Below, piece by piece: positions 4,508-34,012 of a stretch of DNA of 50,822 bases. The DNA is from an uncultured Bacillales bacterium (GTDB lineage: Bacteria > Bacillota_I > Bacilli_A > RFN20 > CAG-826): NCBI GenBank assembly GCA_946625285.1, contig CAMOSZ010000007.1, positions 1 through 50,822 on the forward strand, given 5' to 3'. The number at the start of each line of letters is the position of its first letter. The stretch's first letter is position 1. A model generated the notes under the pieces. That model made no database searches and was not told where the DNA came from. It saw only the letters and a list, made by a program, of their open reading frames with translations. The position numbers were made by a program, and so were the translations under genes.

Positions 4508-4516
4508 AGCTACCTC

Positions 4517-16055: not shown

Positions 16056-16322
16056 TGAACAACTGAACGAACAGAACAACTTTTTTCTATATAGTTATAA
16101 ATGTGTGTGTTTCTTATGCGTTTTTACGGCTTTTTCTACTATTTTTAACATTACAGATAGAATTATTGTTCAAGTTGTTCATAGCGGCTTCTAATACAGA
16201 GTATTACTTTACTGAACAACTGCCTGAACAACCATTTTCGTGGATGAAAAAGTTGTTCAGTTGTTCACTATTTTTCGACTTTGACGTAGACGCGTTGTCT
16301 GCCATAGATAGGAAGTTGTTCA
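16056..16322. repeat. iteron cluster: 7 perfect and 3 degenerate copies of TGAACAAC/GTTGTTCA; candidate phage replication origin
   Basis: Perfect copies on the plus strand at 16056, 16213 and 16225. Reverse-complement copies at 16174, 16252, 16260 and 16315. Degenerate copies at 16064, 16073 and 16165. An AT-rich spacer lies at 16081..16160. Sits between the VRR-NUC and primase/helicase genes. Confidence 0.6.
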
Positions 16323-18742: not shown

Positions 18743-20692
18743 TTAGTCTTTTTTATAGAATTCTGTTTCATAGCCTTCTGCCTTTAATAGAAGTCCAGGA
18801 GCCCATTCAGGGGTTTGGCCCATGAGATTACAAACATCTTCTACTTTAGTAGACATAGGCACTTCTACGATTAGTTCATCATGGACATGAGCGACGATGT
18901 CATACTTTCCTTTAAAGTTTTTAATAGCGTGGGCGAGAACATGTCTAGCAAAAGATTGGACAATGTTTTCCGTTATTTTGCCGGGATAGATTTTGACCCT
19001 AGACCATTTCTTGGCCATATTAACGCCTTGGTATTCTATTTCTTCATTGCCCTTTTCATTCACGATGATTCTAGGTTTCACATAAGAAATGAAATGACCA
19101 CTAGGAAAGTCGATGAATAGCATTTGCGATTGATATCTAAATGTAAGTGGGCCTACAGCTACTCTGGTTTTTTCTTTAATGGCTTTAAAAGCGGCATCCC
19201 CTACCTTCTTCCAGAATCTGACGATATTTGGCGAAGCTTTTCTCCAACGATGAACAATTTCAGGTAATTCTTCATCAGGTATACCCATATCACTACTACC
19301 CATAGCAATTAGAGCTTGAGATCCTCCACCGAATCCGAGTGCAAGCTCGGCTATTTTCCCTTTTTGACGTTCAGGGTCATGCTTATGGATTTCTCTTCCA
19401 AACATTTGAGAAGCAGATGCACAGTAGATATCTTTGCCTTCTTTAAATGCATCGATACGCCACTGCTCTTTGGCTATATAAGCCAAAACCCTTGCTTCAA
19501 TACTACTGAAGTCGGCAACGATAAACTTATAACCTGGTTTTGGTATTAACGCGGTTCTAATTAATTGGCTCAATACATCAGGGACGTCATCAAAGAGCAT
19601 CTTTAAGGATTCGATATCACCTTTTTTGACGAGCTCACGAACCGCAGCAAGATTTTCAATGTTGTTTCTTTTTAGGTTCTGAAGCTGAATCCTTTTTGAC
19701 GACCAGCGTAAAGTCTTACATGAAGCAAAAGCGAATAAACCTCGAGCACGACCATCACTATTGGTACAGTCAAGCATTGCCTGATACTTCATAATTGATG
19801 TTTTAGAGGTCATTTCACGAAGTTTTAGCACTTCGGCGATATTTTGTTCGTTCACATCCTTTTTGAGGTCCAATAATGACTTTTTGCCTAATGAGTCGAC
19901 AACTATGCCATTACTAGCAAGCCAGTCTTTTAATTGTGAGACCGAATTAGGGTTATCTAAAGAAGTTAACGTTTTCATCTTTTCGATAAGCTCTTCGGAT
20001 ATCACTTTATTAATTTCAATGGCTTTTCTAGCTAACTCAAGATCGATGAGCGTACCCCTATCATTAATTTCTTCGGAATCCCAAAACTCTTCCCAAATGA
20101 ATTCAGGTACAGGATAGTTTTTGAAAGCTTGCTGTATGCCCATCTCGGCATAGACATCATAAGCGTTATAACGCTTGAAGGTCTGCCATTTCTCAGGAGC
20201 ATGGCATGGCAAGTTACGTGTGCGACCGTAGTTTTTCTTAGTAGGAAGGCAGGGAACTGTAAAGAATTTTATAAGTGCGGCTCCATCATCGAGCTTGTGT
20301 TTTTCAAGTTTAAGGACTTCACCAACGCCTTTAAGGTTTAGGTTGATTCCCATGATGTTGGCCCATATCATTGTGTCTTTCCATCCTCTAGGGGATAGAT
20401 AAGTTCCTACTGGTAGGCCAATATATTTTGATAAACAATATCTTTCAAATTGAGTGTTGAATGCCCATTTGGTGACTTTGTCATCTTGAAGAGCATCGAT
20501 GAATTCTTGTGGAGGTGTTTCCCCTGAAGCAACATCCACCACTTTTACCTCTTCACCATCAAACGAATAACCAATCAGTAATACAGCAAAGTCGGGATGC
20601 TCGACATAGCAAGCGACTCCCGACTTTTTAAGATTAACTGGTGAGTAGGTTTCTAAGTCGATGGATAGATTACGATAAGAATTCGTCGTCAT
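18743..20692 (-). CDS. family A DNA polymerase with 3'-5' exonuclease domain
   Basis: SIDLETYS (Exo I), RQKGKIAELALGFGGG (motif B), HVHDELIVEV (motif C). The track start 20698 is a TTG; ATG at 20692 used. Confidence 0.9.
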   Translation of the reverse strand: MTTNSYRNLSIDLETYSPVNLKKSGVACYVEHPDFAVLLIGYSFDGEEVKVVDVASGETPPQEFIDALQDDKVTKWAFNTQFERYCLSKYIGLPVGTYLSPRGWKDTMIWANIMGINLNLKGVGEVLKLEKHKLDDGAALIKFFTVPCLPTKKNYGRTRNLPCHAPEKWQTFKRYNAYDVYAEMGIQQAFKNYPVPEFIWEEFWDSEEINDRGTLIDLELARKAIEINKVISEELIEKMKTLTSLDNPNSVSQLKDWLASNGIVVDSLGKKSLLDLKKDVNEQNIAEVLKLREMTSKTSIMKYQAMLDCTNSDGRARGLFAFASCKTLRWSSKRIQLQNLKRNNIENLAAVRELVKKGDIESLKMLFDDVPDVLSQLIRTALIPKPGYKFIVADFSSIEARVLAYIAKEQWRIDAFKEGKDIYCASASQMFGREIHKHDPERQKGKIAELALGFGGGSQALIAMGSSDMGIPDEELPEIVHRWRKASPNIVRFWKKVGDAAFKAIKEKTRVAVGPLTFRYQSQMLFIDFPSGHFISYVKPRIIVNEKGNEEIEYQGVNMAKKWSRVKIYPGKITENIVQSFARHVLAHAIKNFKGKYDIVAHVHDELIVEVPMSTKVEDVCNLMGQTPEWAPGLLLKAEGYETEFYKKD

Positions 20693-21233
20693 CTTCAACT
20701 TCAGAGAAATCTTCTTCAGGGGATGCTTTACCGCCTAAGGCTGGTCCGTCACTCCATTTTTGAACATTATTAAGTGAAGCGGCGATACCTCTAGCGGTAG
20801 AAGTATTAAACGCGTAGAAGGTGATACTTACACGTCCGCGGATACCACTATAGACTTCTGAATGGTCTAAGATTGGGTTGCAGTCTCTATCGACGATACC
20901 AACTGGTTGAACGCTATTAGCATTGATGAAATAGCATCCAGCATAATCAGGATCATCAGGACGTTCAATATCTCCGTCTCTTAGAGGTGTTTTTAACGCC
21001 TCTAAAGGTGGAACTGACTTGGAATTGCCTTTTAATTTAGCAAGACCTTCTTCGTAAGCTGCTTTAATAGCGGCTTGGACTTTAGCCACATCTGGGCTAT
21101 CTTTCTTGATAATACAAGAGAGTGAGTATTTTGCTTGAGCACCTTCAGCTGCTGCTTTAGGTGTCCATAAGTTGGCGAATGAGAATAAAGTATCTTTGCC
21201 AAGGACTACTTTAGTTGGATTGACTTTTTCCAT
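20670..21233 (-). CDS. DUF2815-type phage ssDNA-binding protein
   Basis: 187 aa, acidic tail (EEDFSEVEDDDEFLS). Position between DUF2800 and PolA is the conserved module order. Confidence 0.7.
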   Translation of the reverse strand: MEKVNPTKVVLGKDTLFSFANLWTPKAAAEGAQAKYSLSCIIKKDSPDVAKVQAAIKAAYEEGLAKLKGNSKSVPPLEALKTPLRDGDIERPDDPDYAGCYFINANSVQPVGIVDRDCNPILDHSEVYSGIRGRVSITFYAFNTSTARGIAASLNNVQKWSDGPALGGKASPEEDFSEVEDDDEFLS

Positions 21234-21251: not shown

Positions 21252-22385
21252 CTAATCATCTAAGTCTTTGAAGTCGGCTTCAGCGGAAGTCACTTCTGGT
21301 CGTTTGTCATCTCGCGTTGTTAATGTAAGTTTGCCTTTTGGCTTAACAATGAGATGACCAAGTAATTCATTAAATGTGCTTTTACCAAGCAAAGCTTGCA
21401 TATCAGTGATGGATAATAGTTTCTTTTCGTAAGGATCATATCCAGCTTCACTAACGATGCGGGCCACAGACTCTTCGTCTTGGTACTTACGAGTCGCTCT
21501 GCCCTCAACTAATTTATAGTTTTTATATTGCTTGCCGTGTATGGCTTCATTTAATGCGTATTCTTTAACGGAATTAATCCAGTTAACGAATTCATCAGCT
21601 TTTGAAAGTACCTCTTCCACTTCGTCATCACTCATAAGGAATGCTGGGCGGAATTCATGTTTGGCTAATTCGAGATTGGCATCTCTTAAAGCCTTACAGA
21701 ATGGTTTTGCTTTGCAAAATTGACAGTGTTTGCCGGGATGGAATGTAACATCACCATCTCTAATGGCTTTGACTCCTACCTTAAGGACATTCTCTACCCA
21801 GTCATTAAGTTCTTTGACAGATATTGTCCATTCGGATACAGAGTTTAATCTTGGTTGATAAATGCATAGGGTTACTTCTTCAAAGTCATATAGGTCACCG
21901 AATGTTTCTAAACAGCAAACCGCATATGTCATTTCTTGAAAATTGTTCTTAGCAGATACAGGAACCCCTTTGCCGTATTTGAAGTCAATTATTAGTAATT
22001 GCTTTCCTGCTAATATCGCACAGTCGGTCGTCCCGAAGAGGTCTTCATCAATGTTTGGAGCAGATACTCTTGTTTCAACCATCATTGATGCATCGCTGCA
22101 TGACTTTTTAGCTTCTTCTAGTTTTTCGGTGCAGTAATTAACGTAGCCTTCGACATGTTCTTCCATCTCTTTGTTTTTCCAAACGAGGGATTCGATGTCT
22201 TCATCAGGTGTAACGCCGATTCTTTCCTTTAAACGATAAGCCGCTAAAGTGTGTGCTTCTGTACCCTCATCAGAGAATAAACTTCCTTGATCAGGGATAT
22301 CTTTGCTAGCTTCGTAGCTGCCATAACACGCTAATAAGCGTGCCATAGCTGATGGGCTAAATATTTTTGCGTGGACATCAGGCAT
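21252..22385 (-). CDS. DUF2800 / Cas4-like PD-(D/E)XK nuclease
   Basis: Start moved to ATG 22385 (MPDVHAKIFSPS...), which overlaps the upstream stop by 8 nt. Has a D..(D/E).K core (LLIIDFKYGKG) and the C-terminal Cys cluster CQFCKAKPFCK. Confidence 0.72.
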   Translation of the reverse strand: MPDVHAKIFSPSAMARLLACYGSYEASKDIPDQGSLFSDEGTEAHTLAAYRLKERIGVTPDEDIESLVWKNKEMEEHVEGYVNYCTEKLEEAKKSCSDASMMVETRVSAPNIDEDLFGTTDCAILAGKQLLIIDFKYGKGVPVSAKNNFQEMTYAVCCLETFGDLYDFEEVTLCIYQPRLNSVSEWTISVKELNDWVENVLKVGVKAIRDGDVTFHPGKHCQFCKAKPFCKALRDANLELAKHEFRPAFLMSDDEVEEVLSKADEFVNWINSVKEYALNEAIHGKQYKNYKLVEGRATRKYQDEESVARIVSEAGYDPYEKKLLSITDMQALLGKSTFNELLGHLIVKPKGKLTLTTRDDKRPEVTSAEADFKDLDD

Positions 22386-22701
22386 TGGTAATCGCCTCCG
22401 CATCATGAAGAAGAGTTTCATAGTCTTCCTCTTTAACATCGGATAAGCGATTCGCACCGTACTTAACGAGAAGTTCTTTCACTTCTTTGGTATGTCCATC
22501 GCGGGAGAGGTTAGTTAAATAACTTCTAACTTCCTCTAGTGTGATGACCTTCTTAGAGGCTTCCACCACTGGTTTCTTTTCTTCAGGTTCAGCGGTAATG
22601 AGCTCAACGAAGGCATCAATTTCTTTGATTAATTTTGTGGCAACTTTTTCAAGTTCTTTGGCCACTTTAACGATTGTTTCAATCTTATCTAGTAATTCCA
22701 T
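22378..22701 (-). CDS. hypothetical acidic coiled-coil phage protein (107 aa)
   Basis: ORF coupled to the downstream nuclease gene; no family recognised. Confidence 0.55.
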   Translation of the reverse strand: MELLDKIETIVKVAKELEKVATKLIKEIDAFVELITAEPEEKKPVVEASKKVITLEEVRSYLTNLSRDGHTKEVKELLVKYGANRLSDVKEEDYETLLHDAEAITNA

Positions 22702-23468: not shown

Positions 23469-23765
23469 GTTTTTACCTCGTTGTCCTGCGAGATAAAGTC
23501 CATGAAGAAAGCAGCCTTAAAGAATGTCTGAGTTCATCATTAGCTAAATCTCGCTAATTTTTGAATTTGCAGACAACCTTGTAGATAGGCTGCGATTGCA
23601 ATTATTTTTACTGGTATCTACATAGCCGGCATTACCAGTTTTTTATGAGTCTGATCTGAACTATCACCACGCTGGTTATAATTCATTGTTCAAGCTCACG
23701 TTAAAATATTAAAATATAGGTGTTGTACCCACACGGTACGCGTTAAAGAAAGGATAAGAAAAATC

Positions 23766-25451
23766 GTGAGTAACTTTTCTAAATTCTTTTTAAGAATTTA
23801 TGAATTAAGAAATTCTTCTATAAAAAATAGAAAAGATTTTTTGACGGGCTTTTTTAATGCGGCCGGCAAAGACGGTCCAATATATTTAAGCGATGACACA
23901 TTAAAAAGTATCTGCAATGGTATTAGGAATCTATCTGAAGAATTAATGAATCATTTCCCAAATCCGTCGCTTACAAATAAAGAAAAAGAGTATCTCATGG
24001 ATACCCTTAACAAAAATAGAATATTAGACTTCTTTGATGCTTTTGACATCGACTCTGAAGAGAAACAAAATTATGAACTTCTCTGTAAAGCGATTGCTAT
24101 GCAATTTGAGAACTTTATGAAATACGGTGACATCGCCGGGGAAAGCAATAGCGTTAAAAAGCTGTATAAATATCTACTAGATTTAGACCTTCCTAAAGGA
24201 ATTGATAATAACGAAGATGCTGTTTATTCGGCAAAAACAATGTTTTTCAATGCCTTAAAAGAATTCGCAAAAGTAGATAAAAGCAAACCTTTGGTAGACA
24301 GTAGAGCTCAACTAGATAATGTTTTTCAAAATTTCTTCAATTCGTTTAAAGCCTTTGAGAAACGTTGCGACCATAAAGGACTAGCGATTTATCAAGATGT
24401 AAGAAATGAATTAATCTACAACAATGTGAGACTGAGTAAATATATAAAAATGGCTTCTGAGCCAGGATCACTTCCACTACCGATTCAAAAGGGTGCAAGC
24501 ATAATTGTCTATGACCATGTTGATTATCACGACATAAAGGCGTCGGTTATGCTGGACGAAGATGCTGTTTTTGGATTCAACAATACAATTAAAGCTATCG
24601 AAGGTACTGGGATACCTAAAAATAGAGAGTATGTTTTCTTCACAGAACAATATGCCTTTTATCTAGATAGTGATAAAAAGAATCTTTTACCCGGACTATT
24701 TGATGCAATTACTGCTCTAACTAAATTTTGGAATAGAGTTGAAGACTTATTAGCAAGTTCAGATAGATTGAAAAAGCTAAACAAAAAGATACATGACCAA
24801 CTTCCTGAATGCAGAAAAAATGGCTTTGCTTATTACTATGATGGAACATACTATCCACTAACAAAGCAGATAATATATGACACGATGATTGAAGATTTGG
24901 TATTTGACGAAAACGGTTATACCGTTTATACCGAAGATATCCCTATCCCATTCAAAGAAAATCCTGTTCTTAAAGGGAATTCTTTTGAAGAAATGTTTAC
25001 GAACTATTTAGACCGCATTTTAAATAGCGTTAGAAAAGCAAACGGTTTCTTATCAACTGAATGCTTGTTGATTACCGAAGACAACAATGTCAGATGGATG
25101 GCAACACAATCTATGTCCAGAGCAACTTTATCTAGAAAGATAAGAAAGATGGCAACTTTAGCATACAATAATCACGCCACCACTTTCTTTTGGGCATCTA
25201 TGCATGTTGGTTGCGAATTAGAACAAAACAATAGATATTATTTAGATAAAATGCCTAGAGAGAAATACAATTCTACATTGTTTATTTGCGTTTATGCTGG
25301 ACAGTACGATTCTATATTATCTTACTGCATAAGTGTCGATGACCTCTTAAAGAAATCTGAAATTGATATTAAAATAACTAATGACCCATTTATGGTATTT
25401 TTAGACCCTCTTTGGTTTGCAATAAGGAAGAGTCATGATGAGCAAAACTAA
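23766..25451 (+). CDS. large orphan protein A (561 aa), paralogue of the next gene
   Basis: Long ORF in AT-rich DNA. GTG start with only a weak AAAGGA 11 nt upstream, so the start is uncertain. Collinear similarity blocks with protein B. No enzymatic family recognised. Confidence 0.8.
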   Translation: MSNFSKFFLRIYELRNSSIKNRKDFLTGFFNAAGKDGPIYLSDDTLKSICNGIRNLSEELMNHFPNPSLTNKEKEYLMDTLNKNRILDFFDAFDIDSEEKQNYELLCKAIAMQFENFMKYGDIAGESNSVKKLYKYLLDLDLPKGIDNNEDAVYSAKTMFFNALKEFAKVDKSKPLVDSRAQLDNVFQNFFNSFKAFEKRCDHKGLAIYQDVRNELIYNNVRLSKYIKMASEPGSLPLPIQKGASIIVYDHVDYHDIKASVMLDEDAVFGFNNTIKAIEGTGIPKNREYVFFTEQYAFYLDSDKKNLLPGLFDAITALTKFWNRVEDLLASSDRLKKLNKKIHDQLPECRKNGFAYYYDGTYYPLTKQIIYDTMIEDLVFDENGYTVYTEDIPIPFKENPVLKGNSFEEMFTNYLDRILNSVRKANGFLSTECLLITEDNNVRWMATQSMSRATLSRKIRKMATLAYNNHATTFFWASMHVGCELEQNNRYYLDKMPREKYNSTLFICVYAGQYDSILSYCISVDDLLKKSEIDIKITNDPFMVFLDPLWFAIRKSHDEQN

Positions 25452-27240
25452 TTTATCGACCTTTTTACATATCATCCATGACTGTCAGAAGGATGAGTTA
25501 AAACTTAGTGGCCAAACAATAATCGGTCAACTTTTAGCCATCCAAAAAGCAGACATCTATGGCGATGAAAAACTAAAAGGCATTTACACAGGTGCTCGCC
25601 CTATTGTTCCTTCCGATATAGATTCATACACTAAAAAAGATAGAACTGCTGAGTTTAAAGGATTCTTTTTGAAAATCCTAAACGACAATAAAAAGGATTA
25701 TCTTTTCTCTAAATTTGAAATTGACCCTGAAGATAAAGAAGATTTTGATTTAATGTGCGAAGCATTAGCCACACAATATCAAAACTTCACAAGATATGGT
25801 GACTACGTCAACACCACCGTTAAATCGATTTATGAATCAATATTAGATAGTCACTTAAAGGAGACCGGCGATAAAGCAAACATCGATGCTGTTGTAGCTG
25901 CAACAAGATTATTTTATTCCTGCGTTGAAGCAGCATTAAGCATTAAGCTTGATGGTTCGCTTTTTGAAGCTAGAACTCCTATAGAAACATTCTTAAGAAA
26001 TATCTATGACGTTTTTAATGCCTTCAATGTTAGATGCAACCACGTAGGCAGATTAGCGTACAAACGTGTCAGGGATGATTTCTTCAAGAAAAACAGCAAA
26101 ATATCAGAGTATTTAAAAATGGTATCTGAACCTGGATCACTCCCAGTTGAATTAGAAAACCAAGTCACCGTTTTTCTTTGGAATTGTACTGAAGGCGAGG
26201 AACAATATTTCTTAGCTGGTAATTTCGACTACGATTTGGAATACAACAGAGAAGCTTTGATGGCAGGAATGAAAAAGTACATCCCTGCTGAAATACCAGA
26301 AATACCGTTCAGTGAATATTTAAATATTCATCTTAAAGGCGATAATAAGTGTCTTATTTCAGATTTTAAATATTTAATTAATGATGTTTATTTGTTACTA
26401 AAAACTATGCAAGCAGAATTTAAAGCAAGCAAAGAATGTGAAGATATTAATGCCAAAATCTTCGAATGTATAAAAAAGATTAATGGTGTTCAATTATCAC
26501 TGGTAACCGATGGAACTTATTATCCTAAAGAAGGCAAGCTTAAATATGCTGTAACAATGGAGATGTTCCAGTCTTTGGGTGATGGCAGAATAATCAAAAC
26601 CGGAGATGATTTGTTTACAGTAACTAATCTAAAACATGTTTATTCTGATTCTTTCGTGAATATGCTAGGTAACTTCATAGCTATGTTAATGGTTATATTG
26701 ACCATCAAGCATGAACCAAAAGAAGGCGAGGTTACCCCCACTTCTCAACTAGAAGATGAGTGCGGAACTCCAATAATGACGGAAATTGTTACACTTAACA
26801 CCAACAAAAAATGCCGCTATTTCATGTTCCCACCAACATGTAAGGCTAAAACTTATAGAAAAGTAAGAGAAATCGCATCACTAGCAGAGTCCGATGAAAT
26901 GCTGGGCTTCTTATATGGGCAGCTTGTCACTACTACCGCACCAACACTCGAGAATTTAATGAAAACTTCTGAAGAGAGGATGAAAAGCGGAACGGACTAT
27001 TTATGTGCTTATGGTTATTGGAATAAAAAACTATATCAGATTGTTATTCCTATGGAATATATAAAAAATTCAAGCTTCGATATGAAAACAGGTGAACCTC
27101 ATTTCGACGAAAGAGTATGGGACTGGTTTAAAAGACCAGAGCCAATTAAAGAAGAAAATGTATATTTCCTAAAGCCGCTATTTGATGCGATACACGAAAA
27201 CGAGGACAAAGGATTAACAATCGATTATCTTAAGGACTAA
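25435..27240 (+). CDS. large orphan protein B (601 aa), paralogue of A
   Basis: The ATG lies 17 nt inside the end of gene A, with AAGGAAG upstream. Blocks shared with A: F[DE]ID.E.K....L.C.A.A.Q[FY].NF.[KR]YGD; F[KN]AF..RC[DN]H.G; Y[IL]KM.SEPGSLP; DGTYYP; RK[IV]R..A.LA. Confidence 0.85.
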   Translation: MMSKTNLSTFLHIIHDCQKDELKLSGQTIIGQLLAIQKADIYGDEKLKGIYTGARPIVPSDIDSYTKKDRTAEFKGFFLKILNDNKKDYLFSKFEIDPEDKEDFDLMCEALATQYQNFTRYGDYVNTTVKSIYESILDSHLKETGDKANIDAVVAATRLFYSCVEAALSIKLDGSLFEARTPIETFLRNIYDVFNAFNVRCNHVGRLAYKRVRDDFFKKNSKISEYLKMVSEPGSLPVELENQVTVFLWNCTEGEEQYFLAGNFDYDLEYNREALMAGMKKYIPAEIPEIPFSEYLNIHLKGDNKCLISDFKYLINDVYLLLKTMQAEFKASKECEDINAKIFECIKKINGVQLSLVTDGTYYPKEGKLKYAVTMEMFQSLGDGRIIKTGDDLFTVTNLKHVYSDSFVNMLGNFIAMLMVILTIKHEPKEGEVTPTSQLEDECGTPIMTEIVTLNTNKKCRYFMFPPTCKAKTYRKVREIASLAESDEMLGFLYGQLVTTTAPTLENLMKTSEERMKSGTDYLCAYGYWNKKLYQIVIPMEYIKNSSFDMKTGEPHFDERVWDWFKRPEPIKEENVYFLKPLFDAIHENEDKGLTIDYLKD

Positions 27241-27275
27241 AAAACCAGCTAGCGAAATAACTAACTGGTCTTTTT
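27241..27275. terminator. bidirectional rho-independent terminator between convergent genes
   Basis: AAAA-ACCAGCTAG-cgaaataa-CTAACTGGT-cTTTTT: 9-bp stem with one mismatch, flanked by A and T runs. Confidence 0.7.
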
Positions 27276-28668
27276 ATTCATTAATGATTTCTATGATATA
27301 TGACTTCTTTAACCAGAAGCATTGTTTTGTATATTCAGTCACTCCTGTAAGCTTATCAGGAACAGGGAGCGGATTGGTATCTGCACCAGTTAAACCGTGT
27401 GGTCTGATATGAATATATGGATTCGAAGCGGATTTCGGGAAGTTGTTTAGTCGAGTCGTTTTACCGTTTTTATCAGTTTTAAATCCCCTAACGATATTAC
27501 CAGATAATAGCACCGCTTTTAATTTTTCAAATACTTTGCGGCCATCGTTATCTAATATCTCTTCAGGAATGGACCAAAACTTAACTTTAGAGAATTGATA
27601 TTTGCCATTAATCTTTTTAAAGATTACAAACATGAATTTTCTATTAATCATCATTTCGCGGAAGTCACTATCTTCCCATTCTTGATTAGCGACATCTAAA
27701 AAGCTAAAAGCAGGGAATGACATATTCTGTTCAATGTTTCCATTTTCTTCCACTCTTATTGTTTTGCAGATGATATTAGCTTTCACGAATTCATCGGCGT
27801 CATTGATGATTCCTTTAATACCGAGCATTTTAGCGGCATAGCGTTCAAATCTGTTCTTTGGTTCTTCTTCACCAGCGATTAGATTCTTAAAGTAGTCTTC
27901 ATCCTTACCAACATAGTAGCTCATGCGGTCAGTGATAACTTCTTCTATAGTTTTGGTCTTTAATTCTTCATAATCGACAACACTTTCGATTTCACCATTA
28001 GAAAAAAGTCTACGGAGAACGCCAGTCATATAAGCTGGTTTAAGAGCAAACTTTCTAGGCTTTAAATCAACACCATAATGGGCAGTAGCAGCTGAATCAA
28101 CTTTGCCGTGACCTGCTCCTGCTGTACAAGCTTCTAAATAATTAGTATCTCTTTGAGATATTGTATTGGCTTTGCCGCTTTTAATTTTATTTTGTAATAA
28201 GTTATAGTCGCTTTTAATGACTTCAATATCAGCAGGCGTAAATGTGTGATAGAAACCTGAATCCAAAGTCATCTCGCCATAGGTTTTACCATCAAGATAT
28301 TCATATAAAGCAATAAGTAATTGTTGGCATTTATGCCACATATCGCTATCTTCGAACTTCTGATTCTCGACTTTTTGGTAATTAAAAGTATTTAATGGGA
28401 GTCTTTCTTTAAATGAGAGACCATTTCTTGTTTTGTTATAACCTGTAGTTTTTAACTCAACACCCAAATTAGCAAAATCAGCTTCTGGTCTAGAATTGAC
28501 TGAATAATGAAAAACACCCTCTTCCACTATTTTGCCTAGAGCACCTTTATCGTTTCTTGCTTCGCCAGTAAGACGGTGATTAACATCAAGCTCGTTAAAG
28601 GTATGACCGCATCCGGTCTTAAGTTGGTCTAGTAATTCTTGTATAGAGTTATATACAGGTTCGCTCAT
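27274..28668 (-). CDS. Sau3AI/MutH-family type II restriction endonuclease (probable GATC specificity)
   Basis: 464 aa. NDKGALGKIVEE, GVELKTT (E.K), SFKERLPLNTFNY, ALKPAYMTGVLRR, IHIRPHG and QCFWLKKSYI are collinear with my recollection of Sau3AI. Two-domain size as in Sau3AI. Confidence 0.8.
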   Translation of the reverse strand: MSEPVYNSIQELLDQLKTGCGHTFNELDVNHRLTGEARNDKGALGKIVEEGVFHYSVNSRPEADFANLGVELKTTGYNKTRNGLSFKERLPLNTFNYQKVENQKFEDSDMWHKCQQLLIALYEYLDGKTYGEMTLDSGFYHTFTPADIEVIKSDYNLLQNKIKSGKANTISQRDTNYLEACTAGAGHGKVDSAATAHYGVDLKPRKFALKPAYMTGVLRRLFSNGEIESVVDYEELKTKTIEEVITDRMSYYVGKDEDYFKNLIAGEEEPKNRFERYAAKMLGIKGIINDADEFVKANIICKTIRVEENGNIEQNMSFPAFSFLDVANQEWEDSDFREMMINRKFMFVIFKKINGKYQFSKVKFWSIPEEILDNDGRKVFEKLKAVLLSGNIVRGFKTDKNGKTTRLNNFPKSASNPYIHIRPHGLTGADTNPLPVPDKLTGVTEYTKQCFWLKKSYIIEIINE

Positions 28669-28757
28669 GAAATAATCATATCAAACCACATAATTCTTTT
28701 ACAGCACGCATTTACGCACGTATATAACAATAAATTATCTAAAGAATTTATTTGATC

Positions 28758-28786
28758 TTTACATTTTTTCCTTGATCCTGTATTAT
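28758..28786 (+). promoter_or_regulatory. sigma-A-type promoter TTTACA-N17-TATTAT for the C5 methyltransferase, flanked by and containing GATC sites
   Basis: Near-consensus hexamers with 17-nt spacing. GATC at 28754..28757 abuts the -35 and GATC at 28774..28777 lies in the spacer. No SD before ATG 28808. Confidence 0.55.
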
Positions 28787-28807
28787 CTTTAGTGTAGACT
28801 TAAGCAT

Positions 28808-30061
28808 ATGAAGAAGACTGTTATTGAATTATTCGCAGGTGTTGGTGGGTTCAGAGTTGGACTCAATAACATCACCGCTGTTGGGGAAGATGGTAGAGCC
28901 ATAGAAAAAGGTCCATGGAAATTCGTATGGGCCAATCAATGGGAACCATCAACTAAAACACAACATGCTTTCGATTGTTATAACATGCGTTTCCCACATG
29001 CTGTTGATAATTCAAATATCGATATCTCCAAAGTGGATAAAGCAAGCATACCTGACCACACGCTACTCACAGGCGGATTCCCATGTCAGGACTATTCAGT
29101 TGCTCATACCCTTTCAAAGTCTCATGGTATTGAAGGCAAAAAAGGTGTCCTTTGGTGGCAAATTAATGAAATCTTGCAGGTTAAAAGACCACCATTTGTT
29201 TTACTAGAGAATGTTGATCGTTTAGTCAAATCACCAGCAAGGCAAAGAGGACGTGACTTTGGTATCATGCTCCGCTGCTTATCCGAAGCTGGATATGCGA
29301 TGGAATGGAGAATCATTAATGCAGCAGATTATGGTCATCCACAAAGACGTAGAAGAATTTTCTTATTTGCCTTCCATAATAGCACCAAGCACTATAAAGA
29401 AATGGCGGCTTTAACCCCTGCTCAAATCATCTCTAAAAAAGGTGTATTTGCTAAAGAATTCCCAATCGAATCATTCGATGAAAACAAGATAAAAGTATTT
29501 GATTTTGTAGAAAAATATGGGGATTTAGTAGAGGTTTCCGATAAATTTAAAGCAGAATTCGAGAATGCAGGATTCATGATTGGTAATAAGGTTTATACCG
29601 TTAAAACTAAACCAATTGAAGAAGCTCCTATCACTCTCGGACAGATAGCAGAAAAAGACGGAGTTGATGCCCACTACTTCTTAAATGAAAACCAACGCAA
29701 GAAATATGAATATCTACGTGGTTCTAAGAAGATTCCAAGAGTCGATAAAAATGGATTTGAATACATGTACTCAGAGGGTGCAATGAGTCCTTATGATGAG
29801 CTAGATTTACCAGCAAGAACCATGCTTACATCCGAGGGAACTACTAATAGAAGTACTCATATCATCATGGACCCAAAAGAGGGTAAATTAAGAATTCTTA
29901 CACCAATCGAGTGTGAACGTATAAATCAATTCCCTGACAACTGGACAAACTCCGGTATGCCCGAGAAGAGAAGATACTTCATGATGGGCAATGCACTAGT
30001 GTGTGGAATTATTAAAAGAATAGGAAATCAAATTAAAAAGATTATAGAAAAAGAGGACTAG
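28808..30061 (+). CDS. DNA (cytosine-5) methyltransferase, partner of the Sau3AI-like endonuclease
   Basis: ELFAGVGGF (I), GGFPCQDYS (IV), LLENV (VI), QRRRRIF (VIII), MMGNALV (X). Confidence 0.93.
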   Translation: MKKTVIELFAGVGGFRVGLNNITAVGEDGRAIEKGPWKFVWANQWEPSTKTQHAFDCYNMRFPHAVDNSNIDISKVDKASIPDHTLLTGGFPCQDYSVAHTLSKSHGIEGKKGVLWWQINEILQVKRPPFVLLENVDRLVKSPARQRGRDFGIMLRCLSEAGYAMEWRIINAADYGHPQRRRRIFLFAFHNSTKHYKEMAALTPAQIISKKGVFAKEFPIESFDENKIKVFDFVEKYGDLVEVSDKFKAEFENAGFMIGNKVYTVKTKPIEEAPITLGQIAEKDGVDAHYFLNENQRKKYEYLRGSKKIPRVDKNGFEYMYSEGAMSPYDELDLPARTMLTSEGTTNRSTHIIMDPKEGKLRILTPIECERINQFPDNWTNSGMPEKRRYFMMGNALVCGIIKRIGNQIKKIIEKED

Positions 30062-30086
30062 TAAACAACGCTAATCCTCTTGTTTT

Positions 30087-30539
30087 TTATTCTGTGAAGC
30101 TTTTTTCTATCCATAAAAGCCATTTTTTTACAGTTTGATATCTTCTTTCATAGAGTTCATCGCTGTATTGTGGGTATTCTGTTTTGATTATGTCTATGAC
30201 TTCTTCCTTTTCCAATTTGACTCCATATACTTTTTCTGTAACATAGACTGTTCCAAATACTTTATCGGACATCAATAACCTTATAAGTTCTATTCTTTGC
30301 TTCGTTGGAGAAAGGTTTCTAACATAACATCCCACCTCAGTGAAATGCTTATCTTTAGAAATAAGCCCTAAATACATCGCCGCAGAAAGATAGTACATCA
30401 CTTGTCTATCGGTGACATTTTCCAAAACAAAGCTAATGTACTTCTTATCACTTAGTTTAGATTCGTCAGGAATATTAATTAGTGATATTACCTTTTCAAA
30501 ATCATCGGCTTGAGGGAATGGTATATCATTTCTTTCCAT
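30087..30539 (-). CDS. hypothetical 150-aa protein, third gene of the DGQHR operon (possible winged-helix)
   Basis: Start overlaps the Dam-family gene end by 14 nt. The RQVMYYLSAAMYLGLI helix pattern is suggestive of a DNA-binding fold only. Confidence 0.6.
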   Translation of the reverse strand: MERNDIPFPQADDFEKVISLINIPDESKLSDKKYISFVLENVTDRQVMYYLSAAMYLGLISKDKHFTEVGCYVRNLSPTKQRIELIRLLMSDKVFGTVYVTEKVYGVKLEKEEVIDIIKTEYPQYSDELYERRYQTVKKWLLWIEKSFTE

Positions 30540-31365
30540 AAATTAGAACCTCTCTTACTGTTCTACGCCCACTATTATTACCGCTAATATTTCTATGGAC
30601 ATCTAAATAATTAAATTTATATTTTGTTTTTGGGAATATTTCATTAACAAAAGCTGTGGAGTTATTGCTAATTATAACAATCGCTCCTTTTTCAATCAGC
30701 GAATCACAAAGATTTTCTAGTCGTTGTAAATCTTCCCTTGAAAAACCAGTGCTTGTGTATGATGTGAAGCCGGATGGCTCATAATCATATGGCGGATCTA
30801 AATATACATAGTCACCTTTTTTGGCACCTGAAACTGCATCAATAAAGTCGCAATTAAGAATCTCAACACCAGGTTTATTTAAATAAGCTGATATTTGTCT
30901 AATTTTCTCTTCACAAACTATTTCATGTTTTCCACTAGTAGTTCTGCCTAATGGCACATTAAAGAAACCTTTAGAGTTAACTCTATACAAGCCATTAAAA
31001 CATGTTCTATTTAAATAAATAATTCTTGCTGCCTTTTTCAAAGGGGACATCTTTTTATAAGAAGGTAATCTATCTAAATCACGAATTTGGTAAAAGTAAT
31101 CATGAGAGTGCTTTTTATCATGTTCTTTTAACAGTTTTATAAGCTCTTCTGGATTATCGCGAATTTGGATATAAACGTTATATAATTCTGGATTTAAATC
31201 GTTTATTGTAACATTCGGACATTCTAAAGCAAAAGTTAATGAGCCGCCACCGAAGAATGGCTCAAATAACCTATGCTTCTTAAGTTCTTCTATATCTATT
31301 AATTGAATGATATTAGAGACAAGCTTTCTTTTTCCACCTGCCCACTTTAATACTGGTTCCATCAT
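30526..31365 (-). CDS. Dam-family (D12 class, alpha) N6-adenine DNA methyltransferase
   Basis: LKWAGGKRKL, EPFFGGGSLTF (motif I), VYLDPPYDYE (motif IV). TAATG overlap with the upstream gene. Confidence 0.9.
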   Translation of the reverse strand: MMEPVLKWAGGKRKLVSNIIQLIDIEELKKHRLFEPFFGGGSLTFALECPNVTINDLNPELYNVYIQIRDNPEELIKLLKEHDKKHSHDYFYQIRDLDRLPSYKKMSPLKKAARIIYLNRTCFNGLYRVNSKGFFNVPLGRTTSGKHEIVCEEKIRQISAYLNKPGVEILNCDFIDAVSGAKKGDYVYLDPPYDYEPSGFTSYTSTGFSREDLQRLENLCDSLIEKGAIVIISNNSTAFVNEIFPKTKYKFNYLDVHRNISGNNSGRRTVREVLIYGKK

Positions 31366-33626
31366 TATTGATTTTCAATTAGCCAATCATACACATCTTT
31401 AATCTTTTTAAATTCAGATCTTGTGATTTGCTTTCCGTTATTGATTCTAGACTCAGAATAAGACATGGATTTTAACCAATCTAGAGTTTCGGCCCTATTC
31501 TTTTGGTCGTTTGGATTAACTAAGACATCCTTTAAGAATGTTGTCCAGTTTGTTTTATAACAAGCTATTTTACAAACATCGTCAAATCCTATCATTTCCC
31601 AGAATTCAATGTCCCTATCAACACCATTTCTAGAGTTTTTGACTTTTAAACTGGCAATATCTCTACTTACTCTAAGAGCCAAATCCTCAGGTATATATTC
31701 ATTTTGCCAATTTGCATTTTCAACAAATTTTTCTTTTATACTATCGATAATCTTTTGTTTGATTTTTGAAACGAACTCGGAAGCTTCAGGATTATAATCC
31801 ACGCAATACTCATTGATATATTTTTCCAAATCTTCATTGGTGAATTCACTATTATTGTGATTAAAGGCAACCTGCAATGCTCTCCAAGATGTTTCTTTAG
31901 CACTACCACCTTTTGCGGTTTTAATTTCATTTCTTCTTTCAATTGGTAAATTATTTATTGTATCTGCCAAGGAAACAATCCAATCTTCACATTTATTCCA
32001 TAAATCATCAACATCGTAAATGACAGAAGGAAGATTGTATTTTTTAATAACCAAATCAACAATATCGCCAATTACTCTTATAACCGCTACCATCATGTTA
32101 TTTATTGTTAAATAGCCGGCAGAGCCTTTTTCCCATTCTTCTTGGCAGAACTGTTCAATAGTATCTAAACACTTCTTTAGGAATGGATAAATAACATCCG
32201 CTGTTTCTCTGCTTTCAGTTCTATCTAAAACACCATGCTCGGATATTTCGTTCTTTTTATATTTATTAAAGAAGGAGGTCTTTTCAATGGCGTTCTTTAA
32301 ATATTCAATAGTAATGCAACGTCTATCTGTAACTGTATTCTCACCAGTAACAACTCTGCCGTATAGAGGAGAGTCTTTGTCTTCACCTAATTTTTGACAA
32401 ATATGAAGAATTACAGCTTCTTTTCTCTTTGCTAGTTCAGGTGAGTCCCAATTAAGGTCAATAATTAAAGTATTTCTAAGTGATTTAGAAACAGCTTTTT
32501 GATTTTCATTAATATCCATGAACATTCTTACTTGTTCATCTTTGTCCATATTAACAAAAGCTACTACTGGGACCGTGTTTGATGATGCAAATCTAGATTC
32601 TGAGTATCCGTATAATCTATGTTGACCATCAATAACATATGCAGATTGATACTCTTTTGGTAAATGCAATATACCAATTCTAGAAACAGAAGAGGTGTTT
32701 TGTGATGCCAAATCGAATTGAAGGCCCCTCTTTGCATCAATAGAAATAATTAATGAGTTAGGGAAATATCCGCCGTTGTTAACGAACTCTCTAATCTTTT
32801 TAAGTCTGTCCTTTTTGATTAATCTTTGGTAGGTAGGCATTAAATCGTGATTCGCGTTTGTTCTATGTAAAATGTAAGAAATCTTTAATAAACGTTCTGG
32901 CTCAATCAAAAAAGCATAATATGTGTATCCGCCCATTTTGCCTTCAATAGCAGGAATCTTTTCATCCATTCCTTTGATTGTTTGGTGAGCAAATAAACTA
33001 CCTAGTAATTGGTATCTTGCCGCACTGCCAAGATGATCTACCAAAGCTTTATAGTAGCTTACTGTTTCATCGTCAAAATAAGCAATTTTAGCATTGGCTA
33101 AACGGTCTCTATCTTGAGAACCAAGAACATAGTTCTTTGTGGCAAATATATACTTAAATTTACGTCCTGGATATTCCTTGCTAATTTCTCTAACGAGTCC
33201 TTTATATTTACTTTCCATCTCAGCTATTTCTTGAAGCCAAGATTTATTACGCTCGAATTTTTCAGTTTCCTTGCATTCAATGAATAAGCAGGTTTCATCA
33301 TCAATGGCAATGACATCTAATTGTTTTGTTAAATCTGGGTATTCCTCTGAATATGATAATTTAAAATGCCTATCAGCATTCATGACAGTAAAGCCCATTT
33401 TATAGAAAATCATCCATACTTCATCTTCGAAAGCATCACCGATTTTCTTTGGCTGCATCATTAAAGCGGAGCCATTTTTATATGTTTTTTTAACAACCCA
33501 TCCCTGAGATTCTTTAGTTTGAATAAGTGCCGCATCAAATTTTTCTTCAACACCATCTTTGCTTCTAATTGCCGCTGCAGCTGCCAAAGCTTCACCACTA
33601 GCTAAATGTTCCCAGTTCGTTGCCAT
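31365..33626 (-). CDS. Mrr-cat-like PD-(D/E)XK nuclease domain fused to a DGQHR (DndB/ParB-like) domain, with a long helical C-terminal region
   Basis: FEDEVWMIFYKMGF...QLDVIAIDDETCLFIECK (Mrr_cat-like D..E.K), then AYVIDGQHRLYGY (DGQHR motif). ATG 33626 preferred (GGAGG 6 nt upstream); the track start 33632 abuts the SD. Confidence 0.8.
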   Translation of the reverse strand: MATNWEHLASGEALAAAAAIRSKDGVEEKFDAALIQTKESQGWVVKKTYKNGSALMMQPKKIGDAFEDEVWMIFYKMGFTVMNADRHFKLSYSEEYPDLTKQLDVIAIDDETCLFIECKETEKFERNKSWLQEIAEMESKYKGLVREISKEYPGRKFKYIFATKNYVLGSQDRDRLANAKIAYFDDETVSYYKALVDHLGSAARYQLLGSLFAHQTIKGMDEKIPAIEGKMGGYTYYAFLIEPERLLKISYILHRTNANHDLMPTYQRLIKKDRLKKIREFVNNGGYFPNSLIISIDAKRGLQFDLASQNTSSVSRIGILHLPKEYQSAYVIDGQHRLYGYSESRFASSNTVPVVAFVNMDKDEQVRMFMDINENQKAVSKSLRNTLIIDLNWDSPELAKRKEAVILHICQKLGEDKDSPLYGRVVTGENTVTDRRCITIEYLKNAIEKTSFFNKYKKNEISEHGVLDRTESRETADVIYPFLKKCLDTIEQFCQEEWEKGSAGYLTINNMMVAVIRVIGDIVDLVIKKYNLPSVIYDVDDLWNKCEDWIVSLADTINNLPIERRNEIKTAKGGSAKETSWRALQVAFNHNNSEFTNEDLEKYINEYCVDYNPEASEFVSKIKQKIIDSIKEKFVENANWQNEYIPEDLALRVSRDIASLKVKNSRNGVDRDIEFWEMIGFDDVCKIACYKTNWTTFLKDVLVNPNDQKNRAETLDWLKSMSYSESRINNGKQITRSEFKKIKDVYDWLIENQ

Positions 33627-33750
33627 AAACATCCTCCGCTATATATTTTATGTTTATAAACTTTAAGCATTATATCACAAATATAACGCTTCTTCACTAT
33701 AGTTATATCTTTTCGGCGACGAATACGGGATTCCAACCAAAAAATATAAG

Positions 33751-33800
33751 TAGAGCAAGGTTGTTTCTAAATAGCGCAAAGTTATTACAAATAGAGCAAG
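33751..33800. repeat. three direct repeats TAGAGCAAG / TAGCGCAAA / TAGAGCAAG spaced 21 and 20 bp apart
   Basis: Start positions 33751, 33772 and 33792, each preceded by AA[AG]. 120-170 nt upstream of the DGQHR operon start and about 140 nt from the tRNA 3' end. Confidence 0.5.
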
Positions 33801-33892
33801 ATTAATAGCATGCCCGTTAAAAAAGGCTAAAATATGGGTCAATATCTAACACACAATGTGTGGTAATATCGCAAAAAGTATCGATGTAATCA

Positions 33893-33925
33893 AATAAAAA
33901 GGACTGATACGGTTTGTATCAATCC
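33893..33925 (-). terminator. rho-independent terminator downstream of tRNA-Thr
   Basis: Minus-strand RNA GGAUUGAUAC-AAACC-GUAUCAGUCC (10 bp, one G-U) followed by UUUUUAUUU, 13 nt after the CCA end. Confidence 0.75.
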
Positions 33926-33938
33926 TGTTCATGCTAGA

Positions 33939-34012
33939 TGGTGCCTCCTGGCGGAATCGGACCACCAATAGATCCTTACCATGGATCCGTTATACCACTT
34001 AACTAAGGAGGC
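33939..34012 (-). tRNA. tRNA-Thr (anticodon GGU), CCA encoded
   Basis: Hand-folded 74 nt: GCCTCCT TA GTTA AGTGGTA TAAC G GATCC ATGGTAA GGATC TATT GGTGG TCCGATT CCGCC AGGAGGC A CCA. All four stems pair. The T-loop has C instead of U at position 55. Confidence 0.85.

Follow-up and report, generated by a model that had tools for sequence, protein, structure and literature searches.

Among the closest described systems is that of DndI (IscS-DndBCDE-DndI), a DUF262-HNH enzyme that acts together with a DNA-modification module of the host and restricts DNA lacking the modification; its DGQQR motif is key to NTP hydrolysis, and a phosphorothioate-stimulated ATPase frees DndI from self DNA (PMC11662687). 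Two further proteins with a related domain are DndB, which bears ParB-like and HEPN domains (PMC3632139) and regulates phosphorothioation (PMC4507180), and DpdB, summarised in PMC12839542 as the ATPase supply for dPreQ0 insertion. Moreover, binding of both ATP and GTP is reported for a DndB-like protein (bioRxiv 10.1101/2025.10.10.680097). The architecture described below was already glimpsed in two comparative-genomics surveys of 2013: one reported fusions of ParB-like DGQHR/DUF262 domains with PD-(D/E)xK and HEPN domains, together with their link to restriction-modification (R-M) (Makarova 2013, PMC3632139), and the other listed a ParB protein (Saro_3948) among the Swt1-like HEPN fusions (Anantharaman 2013, PMC3710099).

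In the window, that is, the whole stretch of 50,822 nucleotides analysed, an operon of three minus-strand genes comprises a large effector gene (31365-33632, a 755-aa ORF), the gene of a Dam-family (D12 class, alpha) N6-adenine DNA methyltransferase (30526-31365, 279 aa) and that of a DUF7226 protein (30087-30539, 150 aa). The tight coupling claimed by the first-pass annotation is real: a TAATG junction joins the large-protein and methylase genes, the methylase and DUF7226 genes overlap by 14 nt, and the motifs it quoted are all present. A GGAGG at 33637-33633 lies six nt ahead of the second ATG of the large gene, at 33626, and therefore the true product probably starts there and has 753 aa. 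The operon promoter is expected in the non-coding region upstream (33633-33899, minus strand), on the downstream side of a terminator-like hairpin (33926-33900) that follows tRNA-Thr; a promoter-like site (33771-33743) is found upstream of the large gene, and both elements are consensus matches only.

The locus shares its island with a Sau3AI-type R-M system, and a prophage and tRNA gene adjoin; the window was searched for a second copy of the tRNA-Thr 3' end that would delimit an integrated island, and none occurs. GATC sites are depleted in the window to 0.34 of expectation, which the adjacent Sau3AI-type system could explain by itself. As the first-pass annotation had already seen, no dnd, dpd or ssp genes flank the operon in Pfam, NCBIfam and PADLOC profile searches of the neighbours, and the ORFs around it (16268-37795) contain no Drm matches or domains. 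A part in MutH-like methyl-directed repair was also considered and rejected, since the neighbours vary as in defence islands and the MutH-fold protein of the window is part of the separate Sau3AI-type system.

The large protein (AF2 model, mean pLDDT 87) starts with a domain at about residues 62-215 (32988-33449, minus strand) for which membership of the PD-(D/E)XK nuclease superfamily is supported. The model and the conservation pattern give an alpha-beta-beta-beta-alpha-beta core with E...D...(D/E)xK, where the candidate catalytic residues E69, D106 and E119-C-K121 are predicted on helix 64-78 and on strands 107-110 and 114-127. Conservation across 74 full-length homologues is 71 for E69, 70 for D106, 65 for E119 and 64 for K121; about 86% of the homologues retain the catalytic E/D/ExK set, and in about 10 the nuclease residues are degenerate. 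Profile matches of this domain are all sub-threshold and all to PD-(D/E)XK families (among 21 homologues, Pfam Hjc in 18, Card1_endonuc in 9, NERD in 6 and Mrr_cat in 1), and PADLOC CARF_PDDEXK matches the large protein with E=4.7e-4. Foldseek with the whole 755-aa model relates the nuclease to VC1899, Cdn1, Card1, AF1548, XisH, EndoMS and McrC, with probabilities of 0.99-1.00 for the first four but E-values of only 4e-3 to 0.15; all the matches of that search are weak and at the domain level (E-values 4e-3 to 1, none <=0.001). PDB sequence searches with the single sequence or with a 21-sequence profile returned nothing meaningful. In this regard, the Mrr_cat-like PD-(D/E)XK motif of the first-pass annotation stands as a PD-(D/E)XK one, whereas its assignment to Mrr_cat was rejected, since the window protein does not match PF04471 at E<=0.1 and the single matching homologue does so at E=0.03. 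The domain is better described as a generic PD-(D/E)XK nuclease whose fold is nearest to Card1/Can2-type domains.

The central region, residues 226-524 (32061-32957, minus strand), is the DGQHR domain of DndB/DpdB-type ParB/Srx fold that had been recognised at first sight. Both family profiles score above their curated cutoffs, TIGR03187 with 166 bits versus 58.85 (E=1.4e-48, residues 228-524) and Pfam DndB (PF14072) with 63.9 bits versus 29.1 (E=1.8e-17), and Foldseek matches this domain to pNOB8 ParB-N and PadC. Its motifs, PxYQR (266-270), FPNS (290-293), DGQHR (335-339) and FxxxNxNQK (371-379), include thirteen residues that are invariant in 74 of 74 homologues (Y268, Q269, R270, F290, N292, D335, G336, Q337, H338, R339, F371, N375 and Q378), with neighbours such as P266, P291, S293, N377 and K379 near-invariant. 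The protein is nevertheless neither a DndB nor a DpdB equivalog, with scores far under the cutoffs (42.4 versus 328 for DndB, TIGR03233; 83.5 versus 300 for DpdB, NF041060) and no dnd or dpd neighbours. PADLOC v2 gives only DpdB/DndB domain matches and no system-specific model, and searches with Pfam, NCBIfam and PADLOC revealed no HNH or DUF1524 domain such as would group the protein with GmrSD, SspE or DndI. The conservation of these motifs and the analogy with the DndB-like protein and DndI suggest that the DGQHR domain might operate as an NTP switch of the ParB-CTPase type; the invariance of the NTP-fold motifs argues that cleavage by the large enzyme may need a cofactor besides Mg2+.

The about 300 aa of helical sequence first left unassigned can now be divided. 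Part of them is the C-terminal half of the TIGR03187 match, up to residue 524, and the rest includes a C-terminal helical domain at about residues 640-755 (31365-31715, minus strand) with homology to Swt1-like HEPN. The HEPN_Swt1 profile (PF18731) is matched only by the pNL1 homologue, at 8e-4 and below cutoff. An RN..H motif occurs in actinobacterial, Bacteroidota and proteobacterial clades, distant clades keeping IRN(Q/E)xxH, and is absent from the clade of the window; the window protein has ...SESRINNGKQ... in this domain, with no aligned R/H pair and no Rx4-6H motif. The domain is a degenerate Swt1-like HEPN whose RNA-cleaving motif has been lost.

The partner of the large protein is, as first proposed, an N6-adenine methylase of the Dam family (TIGR00571, E=1.5e-68, 231 bits versus a cutoff of 114.85; PF02086, E=2.4e-57). 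It matches DpnM (2dpm) with E=1.1e-62 and E. coli Dam with 3e-28, and its FGGGS and DPPY motifs align with both, as in a stand-alone type II R-M methylase with catalytic and SAM-binding motifs intact. The residues of the GATC-reading hairpin (N120, G121, R124, N126, N132 and P134, numbered as in E. coli Dam) do not vary in any of the 77 linked methylases. No second, DpnA-like methylase and no DpnII-family REase (PF04556) occur in the window operon. The similarity to DpnM and the invariant hairpin, together with related loci that contain DpnII cassettes and the GATC depletion of the window, link the system to GATC, and the DpnM-like methylase is probably GATC-specific, although this specificity is read from similarity.

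At the gene level this is an ordinary type II arrangement of a methylase and a translationally coupled nuclease, and the non-standard R-M layout claimed at first is reduced to the unusual domain composition of the nuclease. One alternative explanation of the operon would be a plain type II enzyme, GATC-specific, blocked by methylation and NTP-free, whose DGQHR and helical parts serve only as a scaffold for DNA binding and dimerisation: the genes of methylase and single nuclease overlap, the methylase resembles DpnM, and the nuclease carries PD-(D/E)XK, the commonest fold of type II REases. However, the residues of the NTP-binding ParB/DGQHR fold are invariant in homologues down to about 36% identity, which is more than a pure scaffold would require, and relatives pair with DISARM or radical-SAM modules, combinations that suggest a sensor role over site-specific cutting. 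We regard the plain enzyme as unlikely.

Full-length homologues of the large protein, with 26-99% identity, occur in more than 80 loci, and at least 490 tblastn-confirmed relatives exist among GTDB species representatives, a count that takes in partial DGQHR relatives. The pair is currently annotated simply as 'DGQHR domain-containing protein' and 'Dam methylase', and full-text searches of the literature found no description of this system and no activity for any member of the family. Neighbours were compared in 80 GTDB loci with a homologue from at least 6 phyla (Bacillota, Bacteroidota, Actinomycetota, Pseudomonadota, Cyanobacteriota/Melainabacteria and others). A Dam-like gene detected with phmmer adjoins the homologue in 76 loci, and two more have a diverged PF02086 methylase beside it, giving 78 of 80; of the other two, one is interrupted by the contig end and one lacks a methylase. 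The methylase is mostly on the same strand, with genes overlapping or nearly so, which is the conserved, co-transcribed adjacency expected of a type II endonuclease gene, and the remaining neighbours are not conserved. Homologues in IMG/VR, at 26-29% identity, likewise adjoin Dam; a mainly phage-borne system was rejected, as IMG/VR has only about 6 full-length relatives and the INPHARED phage records none.

Such a linkage weighs heavily against a possibility raised by the island setting with its Sau3AI-type R-M, prophage and tRNA gene, namely that the large protein is an independent type IV-like or abortive-infection effector, co-localised with methylases in islands and functionally indifferent to Dam. 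ParB-nuclease fusions of the GmrSD, BrxU and SspE type do work as stand-alone effectors, but a D12-class methylase adjacent in 78 of 80 loci across several phyla, with other neighbours varying, is more than island co-location would produce, and this possibility appears very improbable.

The claim that the trio is conserved as a unit did not survive this comparison: the conserved core is the pair of methylase and large protein, and the DUF7226 gene is present in about 13 of the 80 loci. The 150-aa product belongs to Pfam DUF7226 (PF23871, E=5e-19) and its AF2 model (pLDDT 94) predicts a winged-helix-like N-terminal half followed by a helical bundle. The wHTH suspected at first is thus borne out as a predicted pattern in that half and not as a significant fold match, the top Foldseek match being BrxA at E=0.78, a lead only; searches against PDB sequences gave nothing meaningful. 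Elsewhere DUF7226 occurs as a fusion partner of Dam methylases and of the REase_II family PDLC03513. The free-standing protein, a putative accessory subunit, is confined to the clade of the window.

Variants of the locus exist in several contexts. Complete DpnII cassettes enclose relatives of the large protein in four loci. In six others, DrmA (E=4e-132), DrmB (E=7e-52) and then a NERD-helicase immediately precede the pair of Dam and DGQHR protein, and in this DISARM-linked clade the nuclease residues of the DGQHR protein are lost or altered. In plasmid homologues (29% identity, E=3e-97) Dam gives way to a module of small DGQHR protein, radical-SAM and GHKL; on pNL1 and Agrobacterium plasmids the small DGQHR protein is a separate one that goes with the modification genes, and the large protein stands apart.

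Some of these variants could be taken to mean that the large protein is a helper or regulator of Dam, comparable to DndB and DpdB and acting by transcriptional repression or ATP-dependent loading, with a nuclease fold that binds DNA or nicks it to give the methylase access, instead of restricting it. The homology to DndB, a regulator, and to DpdB, an ATPase supplier, would agree with this, as would the relatives in complete DpnII cassettes and the nuclease-degenerate clade. Against it, the catalytic E/D/ExK residues persist in most homologues, Dam-family methylases act alone, the plasmids just mentioned keep a separate small DGQHR protein beside their modification genes, and the equivalog scores for DndB and DpdB lie far under cutoff. 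A helper role seems, in consequence, quite unlikely.

Altogether, the methylase linkage, the translational coupling and the conserved nuclease and DGQHR residues favour an R-M-like defence system in which the DGQHR domain would tie the cutting of DNA to the sensing of methylation, a reading that we consider reasonably probable. The DpnM-like enzyme would mark host GATC sites with N6-methyladenine and the 753/755-aa protein would be the restriction component. Its DGQHR (ParB/DndB-fold) domain and helical C-terminal region may bind DNA and nucleoside triphosphate and read the modification state, gating the N-terminal PD-(D/E)XK nuclease so as to cut incoming DNA that lacks methylation and to release self DNA that carries it, the logic that DndI follows with phosphorothioate. 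The DUF7226 protein could serve Dam-type R-M systems as a subunit particular to its clade, either binding DNA or acting as an adaptor. Of the new restriction architecture initially proposed, the modification-gated DGQHR nuclease is retained, with DndI as precedent (PMC11662687), and the novelty of the fusion is not, its class being in the 2013 surveys (PMC3632139, PMC3710099). Several observations run against the R-M-like reading. The characterised DGQHR proteins, DndB as regulator and DpdB as base-insertion ATPase, are on the modification side and not on that of restriction; the four loci with a DpnII-type REase have a methylase that therefore needs no large-protein partner; and there are the homologues with degenerate nuclease residues and the weak Foldseek E-values of the domains.

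The exchange of modules on plasmids and in the DISARM-linked, nuclease-degenerate clade indicates a modularity consistent with a sensor-effector. More tentatively, then, the DGQHR-HEPN core could be a portable NTP-switch reader of modification state, reused with varied self marks (Dam m6A here; a putative radical-SAM/GHKL-dependent modification on alphaproteobacterial plasmids) and varied effectors (the PD-(D/E)XK DNase to which it is fused; in certain clades, a HEPN RNase that is active; DISARM DrmAB and NERD-helicase in trans). If so, the window operon would represent the first restriction enzyme that is linked to adenine methylation and powered by an NTPase of ParB fold, and an R-M class outside types I, II and III. 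The family variants point to such a reusable modification sensor and possibly to a novel DNA modification on pNL1-type plasmids. Should the R-M-like reading be true, methylation-based R-M would gain a ParB/DndB-fold NTP switch-nuclease effector, hitherto only phosphorothioate-linked or modification-dependent, the DGQHR/DndB family would be tied mechanistically to restriction beyond the control of modification, and a gene pair widespread in several phyla would be explained. GATC-directed barriers of this kind bear on the transformability of rumen and gut Bacillota.

In comparison with known systems, the window protein shares with DndI, as with SspE, GmrSD and BrxU, a ParB/Srx-fold domain with DGQ(Q/H)R fused to a DNase. 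It belongs to the DGQHR/DndB branch (TIGR03187) instead of the DUF262 branch, its nuclease is an N-terminal PD-(D/E)XK in place of a C-terminal DUF1524 HNH, and its partner is a Dam-type adenine methylase instead of a phosphorothioate system. GmrSD and BrxU are modification-dependent, a polarity opposite to the one proposed here. DndB and DpdB have in common with the window protein the DGQHR domain and a C-terminal HEPN-like region, but their length is about 350 aa and their role lies in modification or regulation, whereas the window protein has an extra N-terminal nuclease domain of roughly 220 aa. DISARM, with its DrmA/DrmB core and methylase, is present in related loci, while no drm genes occur around the window operon and the window protein keeps its nuclease residues. 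PADLOC PDLC03513, a type II REase family (DUF6996-DUF6997-DUF7226) accompanied by an HTH_3 controller and a D12 methylase, has DUF7226 and the Dam-family partner in common with the operon; in that family DUF7226 forms the REase C-terminal domain, and here it is a free-standing protein beside an unrelated nuclease. Finally, the DpnII cassette (DpnM/DpnA/DpnII) contains a methylase like that of the window and, when complete, harbours inserted relatives of the large protein, whereas in the window operon the large DGQHR nuclease itself occupies the position of the REase.

The conserved unit of the operon is the pair formed by the methylase and the large protein, not the trio of genes that the first-pass annotation had proposed. 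A scan of the GTDB species representatives returned at least 600 pattern matches and at least 490 relatives confirmed by tblastn. In the best 80 the large protein is near full length or truncated, and the hosts include Bacillota, Bacteroidota, Actinomycetota, Pseudomonadota, Melainabacteria, KSB1 and others. Within these best 80 of at least 490 relatives, a Dam-like ORF adjoins the large gene in 76 loci; in most of them the methylase comes first and the nuclease second, with both genes on one strand and an overlap or close to one between them. DUF7226 occurs in only about 13, essentially those of the window's clade, which has the gene order nuclease-methylase-DUF7226. In two loci (L039 and L048) the methylase position is occupied by a diverged PF02086 enzyme, L073 is cut by the end of its contig, and L056 is the only other locus among the best 80 where no methylase was found. 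Homologues in IMG/VR, at 26-29% identity, are also Dam-adjacent; bar a few clade- or cassette-specific clusters, no other conserved neighbour family was detected around the best 80. Set against this recurrent adjacency, the reading of the large protein as an unrelated effector, merely co-localised with the methylase, appears very improbable.

In the window, the minus strand carries three ORFs arranged head to tail, which encode the large protein (31365-33632, 755 aa), the Dam-family methylase (30526-31365, 279 aa) and the DUF7226 protein (30087-30539, 150 aa). The tight coupling initially described is indeed present, with a large protein/methylase junction reading CAA TAA TG ATG, where one base is common to stop and start (TAATG), and a 14-nt overlap between the methylase and DUF7226 genes. 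A GGAGG at 33637-33633 abuts the first ATG of the large gene and lies 6 nt ahead of the second (33626); given this spacing and the M(A/T)(T/N)W N-termini of the homologues, the product is probably a 753-aa protein starting at the second ATG. Just upstream of the operon are a tRNA-Thr gene (33939-34012, minus strand) and a terminator-like hairpin (33926-33900), so a separate promoter should exist within 33633-33899. The window is 99-100% identical to a rumen Erysipelotrichaceae/Bacilli MAG (loci L001 and L004).

TIGR00571 (1.5e-68) places the 279-aa protein in the Dam family; its closest match is DpnM from the DpnII system (2dpm, E=1.1e-62), followed by E. coli Dam (3e-28). In the E. coli Dam-DNA structure of Horton et al. 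2006, GATC is reportedly read by K9 and by the hairpin residues N120, L122, R124 and P134. Equivalents of all of them are found in the window methylase, and N120, G121, R124, N126, N132 and P134 are invariant in 77/77 methylases linked to the large-protein family, which makes GATC the likely target of the window enzyme.

A PD-(D/E)XK nuclease fold is supported for the N-terminal region of the large protein. Among 74 full-length homologues, E69 is conserved in 71, D106 in 70, E119 in 65 and K121 in 64, and an AF2 model (mean pLDDT 87) places these residues on a helix (64-78) and two strands (107-110 and 114-127). Profile matches to this region in 21 homologues were all sub-threshold and all to PD-(D/E)XK families, comprising Hjc (18), Card1_endonuc (9), NERD (6), HSDR_N_2 (3) and Mrr_cat (1); moreover, PADLOC gives a CARF_PDDEXK match at 4.7e-4. 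Foldseek comparison with the PDB returned, with weak E-values, nuclease domains of the Card1/Can2/Cdn1/VC1899 type, AF1548, XisH, EndoMS and McrC. Of the Mrr_cat-like PD-(D/E)XK motif first claimed, the PD-(D/E)XK part stands on conserved residues and profiles, whereas the Mrr_cat label was rejected, its single match contrasting with the 18 of Hjc. Such a nuclease could also be that of an NTP-independent type II enzyme, a reading that has to accommodate the ParB-fold domain that follows and that we consider unlikely.

This second domain, also recognised in the first-pass annotation, is confirmed by a match of residues 228-524 to TIGR03187 (E=1.4e-48, 166 bits vs a cutoff of 58.85). Within its ParB/Srx-type fold, Y268-Q269-R270, F290, N292, D335-R339 (DGQHR), F371, N375 and Q378 are invariant in 74/74 homologues, with P266, P291, S293, N377 and K379 nearly so; the invariant residues are those of the QR, DGQ(Q/H)R and FxxxN motifs reported in DUF262/GmrS and DGQHR domains (PMC4619093). 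Foldseek hits of this middle part were pNOB8 ParB-N and PadC, again with weak E-values. A DndB/DpdB-like modification helper would share this type of domain, and the scores for a DndB or DpdB equivalog assignment fall far under the cutoffs; we regard such a role as distinctly unlikely. The final ~110 residues align with a Swt1-like HEPN domain, and the homologue on plasmid pNL1 matches PF18731 at 8e-4; in this line, 'ParB (Saro_3948)', a Novosphingobium aromaticivorans locus tag, figures among the Swt1-like HEPN fusions of Anantharaman et al. (PMC3710099). The IRN(Q/E)xxH motif is kept in the actinobacterial, Bacteroidota and proteobacterial clades and is absent from the window clade, where the aligned sequence is SESRINNGKQ, and the HEPN part of the window protein is probably non-catalytic.

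The 150-aa protein matches Pfam DUF7226 (5e-19), and in its AF2 model (pLDDT 94) helices lead into a beta-hairpin, in a winged-helix pattern, ahead of a four-helix bundle. A Foldseek search gave no significant hit, the best being BrxA (E=0.78) and then winged-helix regulators. An exhaustive profile search recovered 1,386 relatives, many of ~425 aa with DUF7226 at the C-terminus. Some of these are fusions to a Dam-family methylase (P0178); the others are DUF6996-DUF6997-DUF7226 proteins and match the PADLOC REase_II model PDLC03513 end to end; locus L005 has both a free DUF7226 copy and a Dam-DUF7226 fusion. In three loci (L083-L085) the DUF6996-DUF6997-DUF7226 gene directly follows a D12 methylase and adjoins an HTH_3 controller, as in L083, where controller, D12 methylase and 435-aa REase make up a compact type II R-M operon (2742-5308). 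As seen from this operon, DUF7226 is the C-terminal domain of the PDLC03513 REase family. Since it is fused both to Dam methylases and to these REases beside D12 methylases, DUF7226 is a Dam-type R-M module that may belong to the R subunit, to the M subunit or be free-standing, which fits a DNA-binding or adaptor role.

Directly downstream of the operon lies a complete Sau3AI-type R-M system (27274-30061), convergent with the DUF7226 gene and 25 bp apart, which comprises a 464-aa Sau3AI-family REase (27274-28668, minus strand; NF040973, 1.1e-122, above cutoff) and a 417-aa C5 methylase (28808-30061, plus strand; PADLOC PDLC03329, 2e-172). Both systems occur together in L001-L004. GATC is the target of Sau3AI-type enzymes as well, and because m5C blocks Sau3AI whereas m6A does not, we infer that the two systems would cover each other's evasion routes. 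The window contains 78 GATC sites, against 231 expected under a Markov model, with observed/expected ratios of 0.22 in the prophage, 0.27 in 23500-34000 and 0.52 from 34000 to the end, a depletion consistent with GATC-directed restriction pressure on the lineage. The prophage (1 to ~23000) encodes a major head protein (1481-2647), portal (3257-4507), large terminase (4517-6157), helicase (14376-15758), VapE-like primase (16268-18352), family A polymerase (PolA, 18743-20698), Enc34-type SSB (20670-21233) and a DUF2800 PD-(D/E)XK protein (21252-22457); neither an integrase nor an att repeat of the tRNA-Thr was found within the window. Another of its genes joins a ParB-like domain to a DNA methyltransferase (12068-13339, minus strand; phrog_498, 1.7e-156), a fusion typical of phage self-methylation, anti-restriction genes; its product is the second ParB-fold protein of the window, unrelated to the first. 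Two overlapping plus-strand ORFs of 561 and 601 aa (23766-27240), between the prophage and the R-M genes, have no Pfam or PHROGs match, and for the 601-aa one NCBIfam and PADLOC gave nothing either; the two could form a further accessory module, of defence or of the prophage.

Variant contexts of the large protein are also informative. In L008, L010, L071 and L080 it lies inside a complete DpnII cassette with Dam, the DpnII REase (PF04556, down to 4.5e-95) and a DpnA-like PF01555 methylase; this arrangement ties the family to GATC methylation and indicates that the large protein can serve as a second nuclease sharing a single methylase. In L015 (2-9298), L017, L018, L019, L024 and L029, DrmA (4e-132, PADLOC), DrmB (7e-52) and a NERD-helicase precede the Dam/DGQHR pair in a DISARM-like array, an arrangement suggesting that the pair supplies mark and sensor for the DISARM effectors. 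Five of the six loci have lost two or more of D106, E119 and K121 by replacement, L018 having only K121 changed to H, and the HEPN motif is absent as well. Given how closely related these loci are, a single evolutionary event probably accounts for all six. In two plasmid loci, L081 (4905-11403, from pNL1) and L082 (4887-11591, from an Agrobacterium plasmid), the homologue is full-length (29% identity over 718 aa, E=3e-97) and has no Dam beside it; its neighbours are a radical-SAM protein, a GHKL-type ATPase and a small protein of the DGQHR type. There is no PADLOC v2 model for the radical-SAM and ATPase proteins, and the module may be an undescribed DNA-modification module. Taken together, the DpnII, DISARM and plasmid variants point to the DGQHR-containing body as a reader of modification state, paired with varied marks and effectors. 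The methylase-free L056 (455-10464), where the neighbours of a 619-aa truncated homologue are a UvrD-like fragment, an SNF2 helicase with an N-terminal Swt1-like HEPN (7.9e-9) and a sacsin/GHKL-type ATPase, is a further defence-island context for the family.

Altogether, an R-M-like system is the best-supported reading of the operon. The Dam methylase would mark self GATC, the large protein would restrict unmarked DNA through its PD-(D/E)XK domain, and the ParB-fold DGQHR domain would act as an NTP-dependent switch; for the large protein and the pair, we infer DNA cleavage, use of NTPs, sensing of methylation and specificity for a site. Fusions of ParB-like DGQHR/DUF262 domains to HNH, PD-(D/E)xK and HEPN nucleases, and their link to R-M, were described by Makarova et al. 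in 2013 (PMC3632139), and a ParB-HEPN fusion was already listed that year (Anantharaman et al., PMC3710099). Our literature search found no paper naming, delimiting or testing the Dam-linked family, and PADLOC v2 holds no model for it; public annotations of homologues read just 'DGQHR domain-containing protein' or 'DndB', the latter being wrong. The nearest experimental analogue of the large protein is DndI (DUF262-HNH), which restricts DNA lacking phosphorothioate and whose ATPase is raised by this modification, so that the protein closes and leaves self DNA (PMC11662687). A DndB-like protein binds ATP and GTP (bioRxiv 10.1101/2025.10.10.680097). Compared with these known systems, we rate the operon as R-M combined with a ParB-NTPase-nuclease effector.
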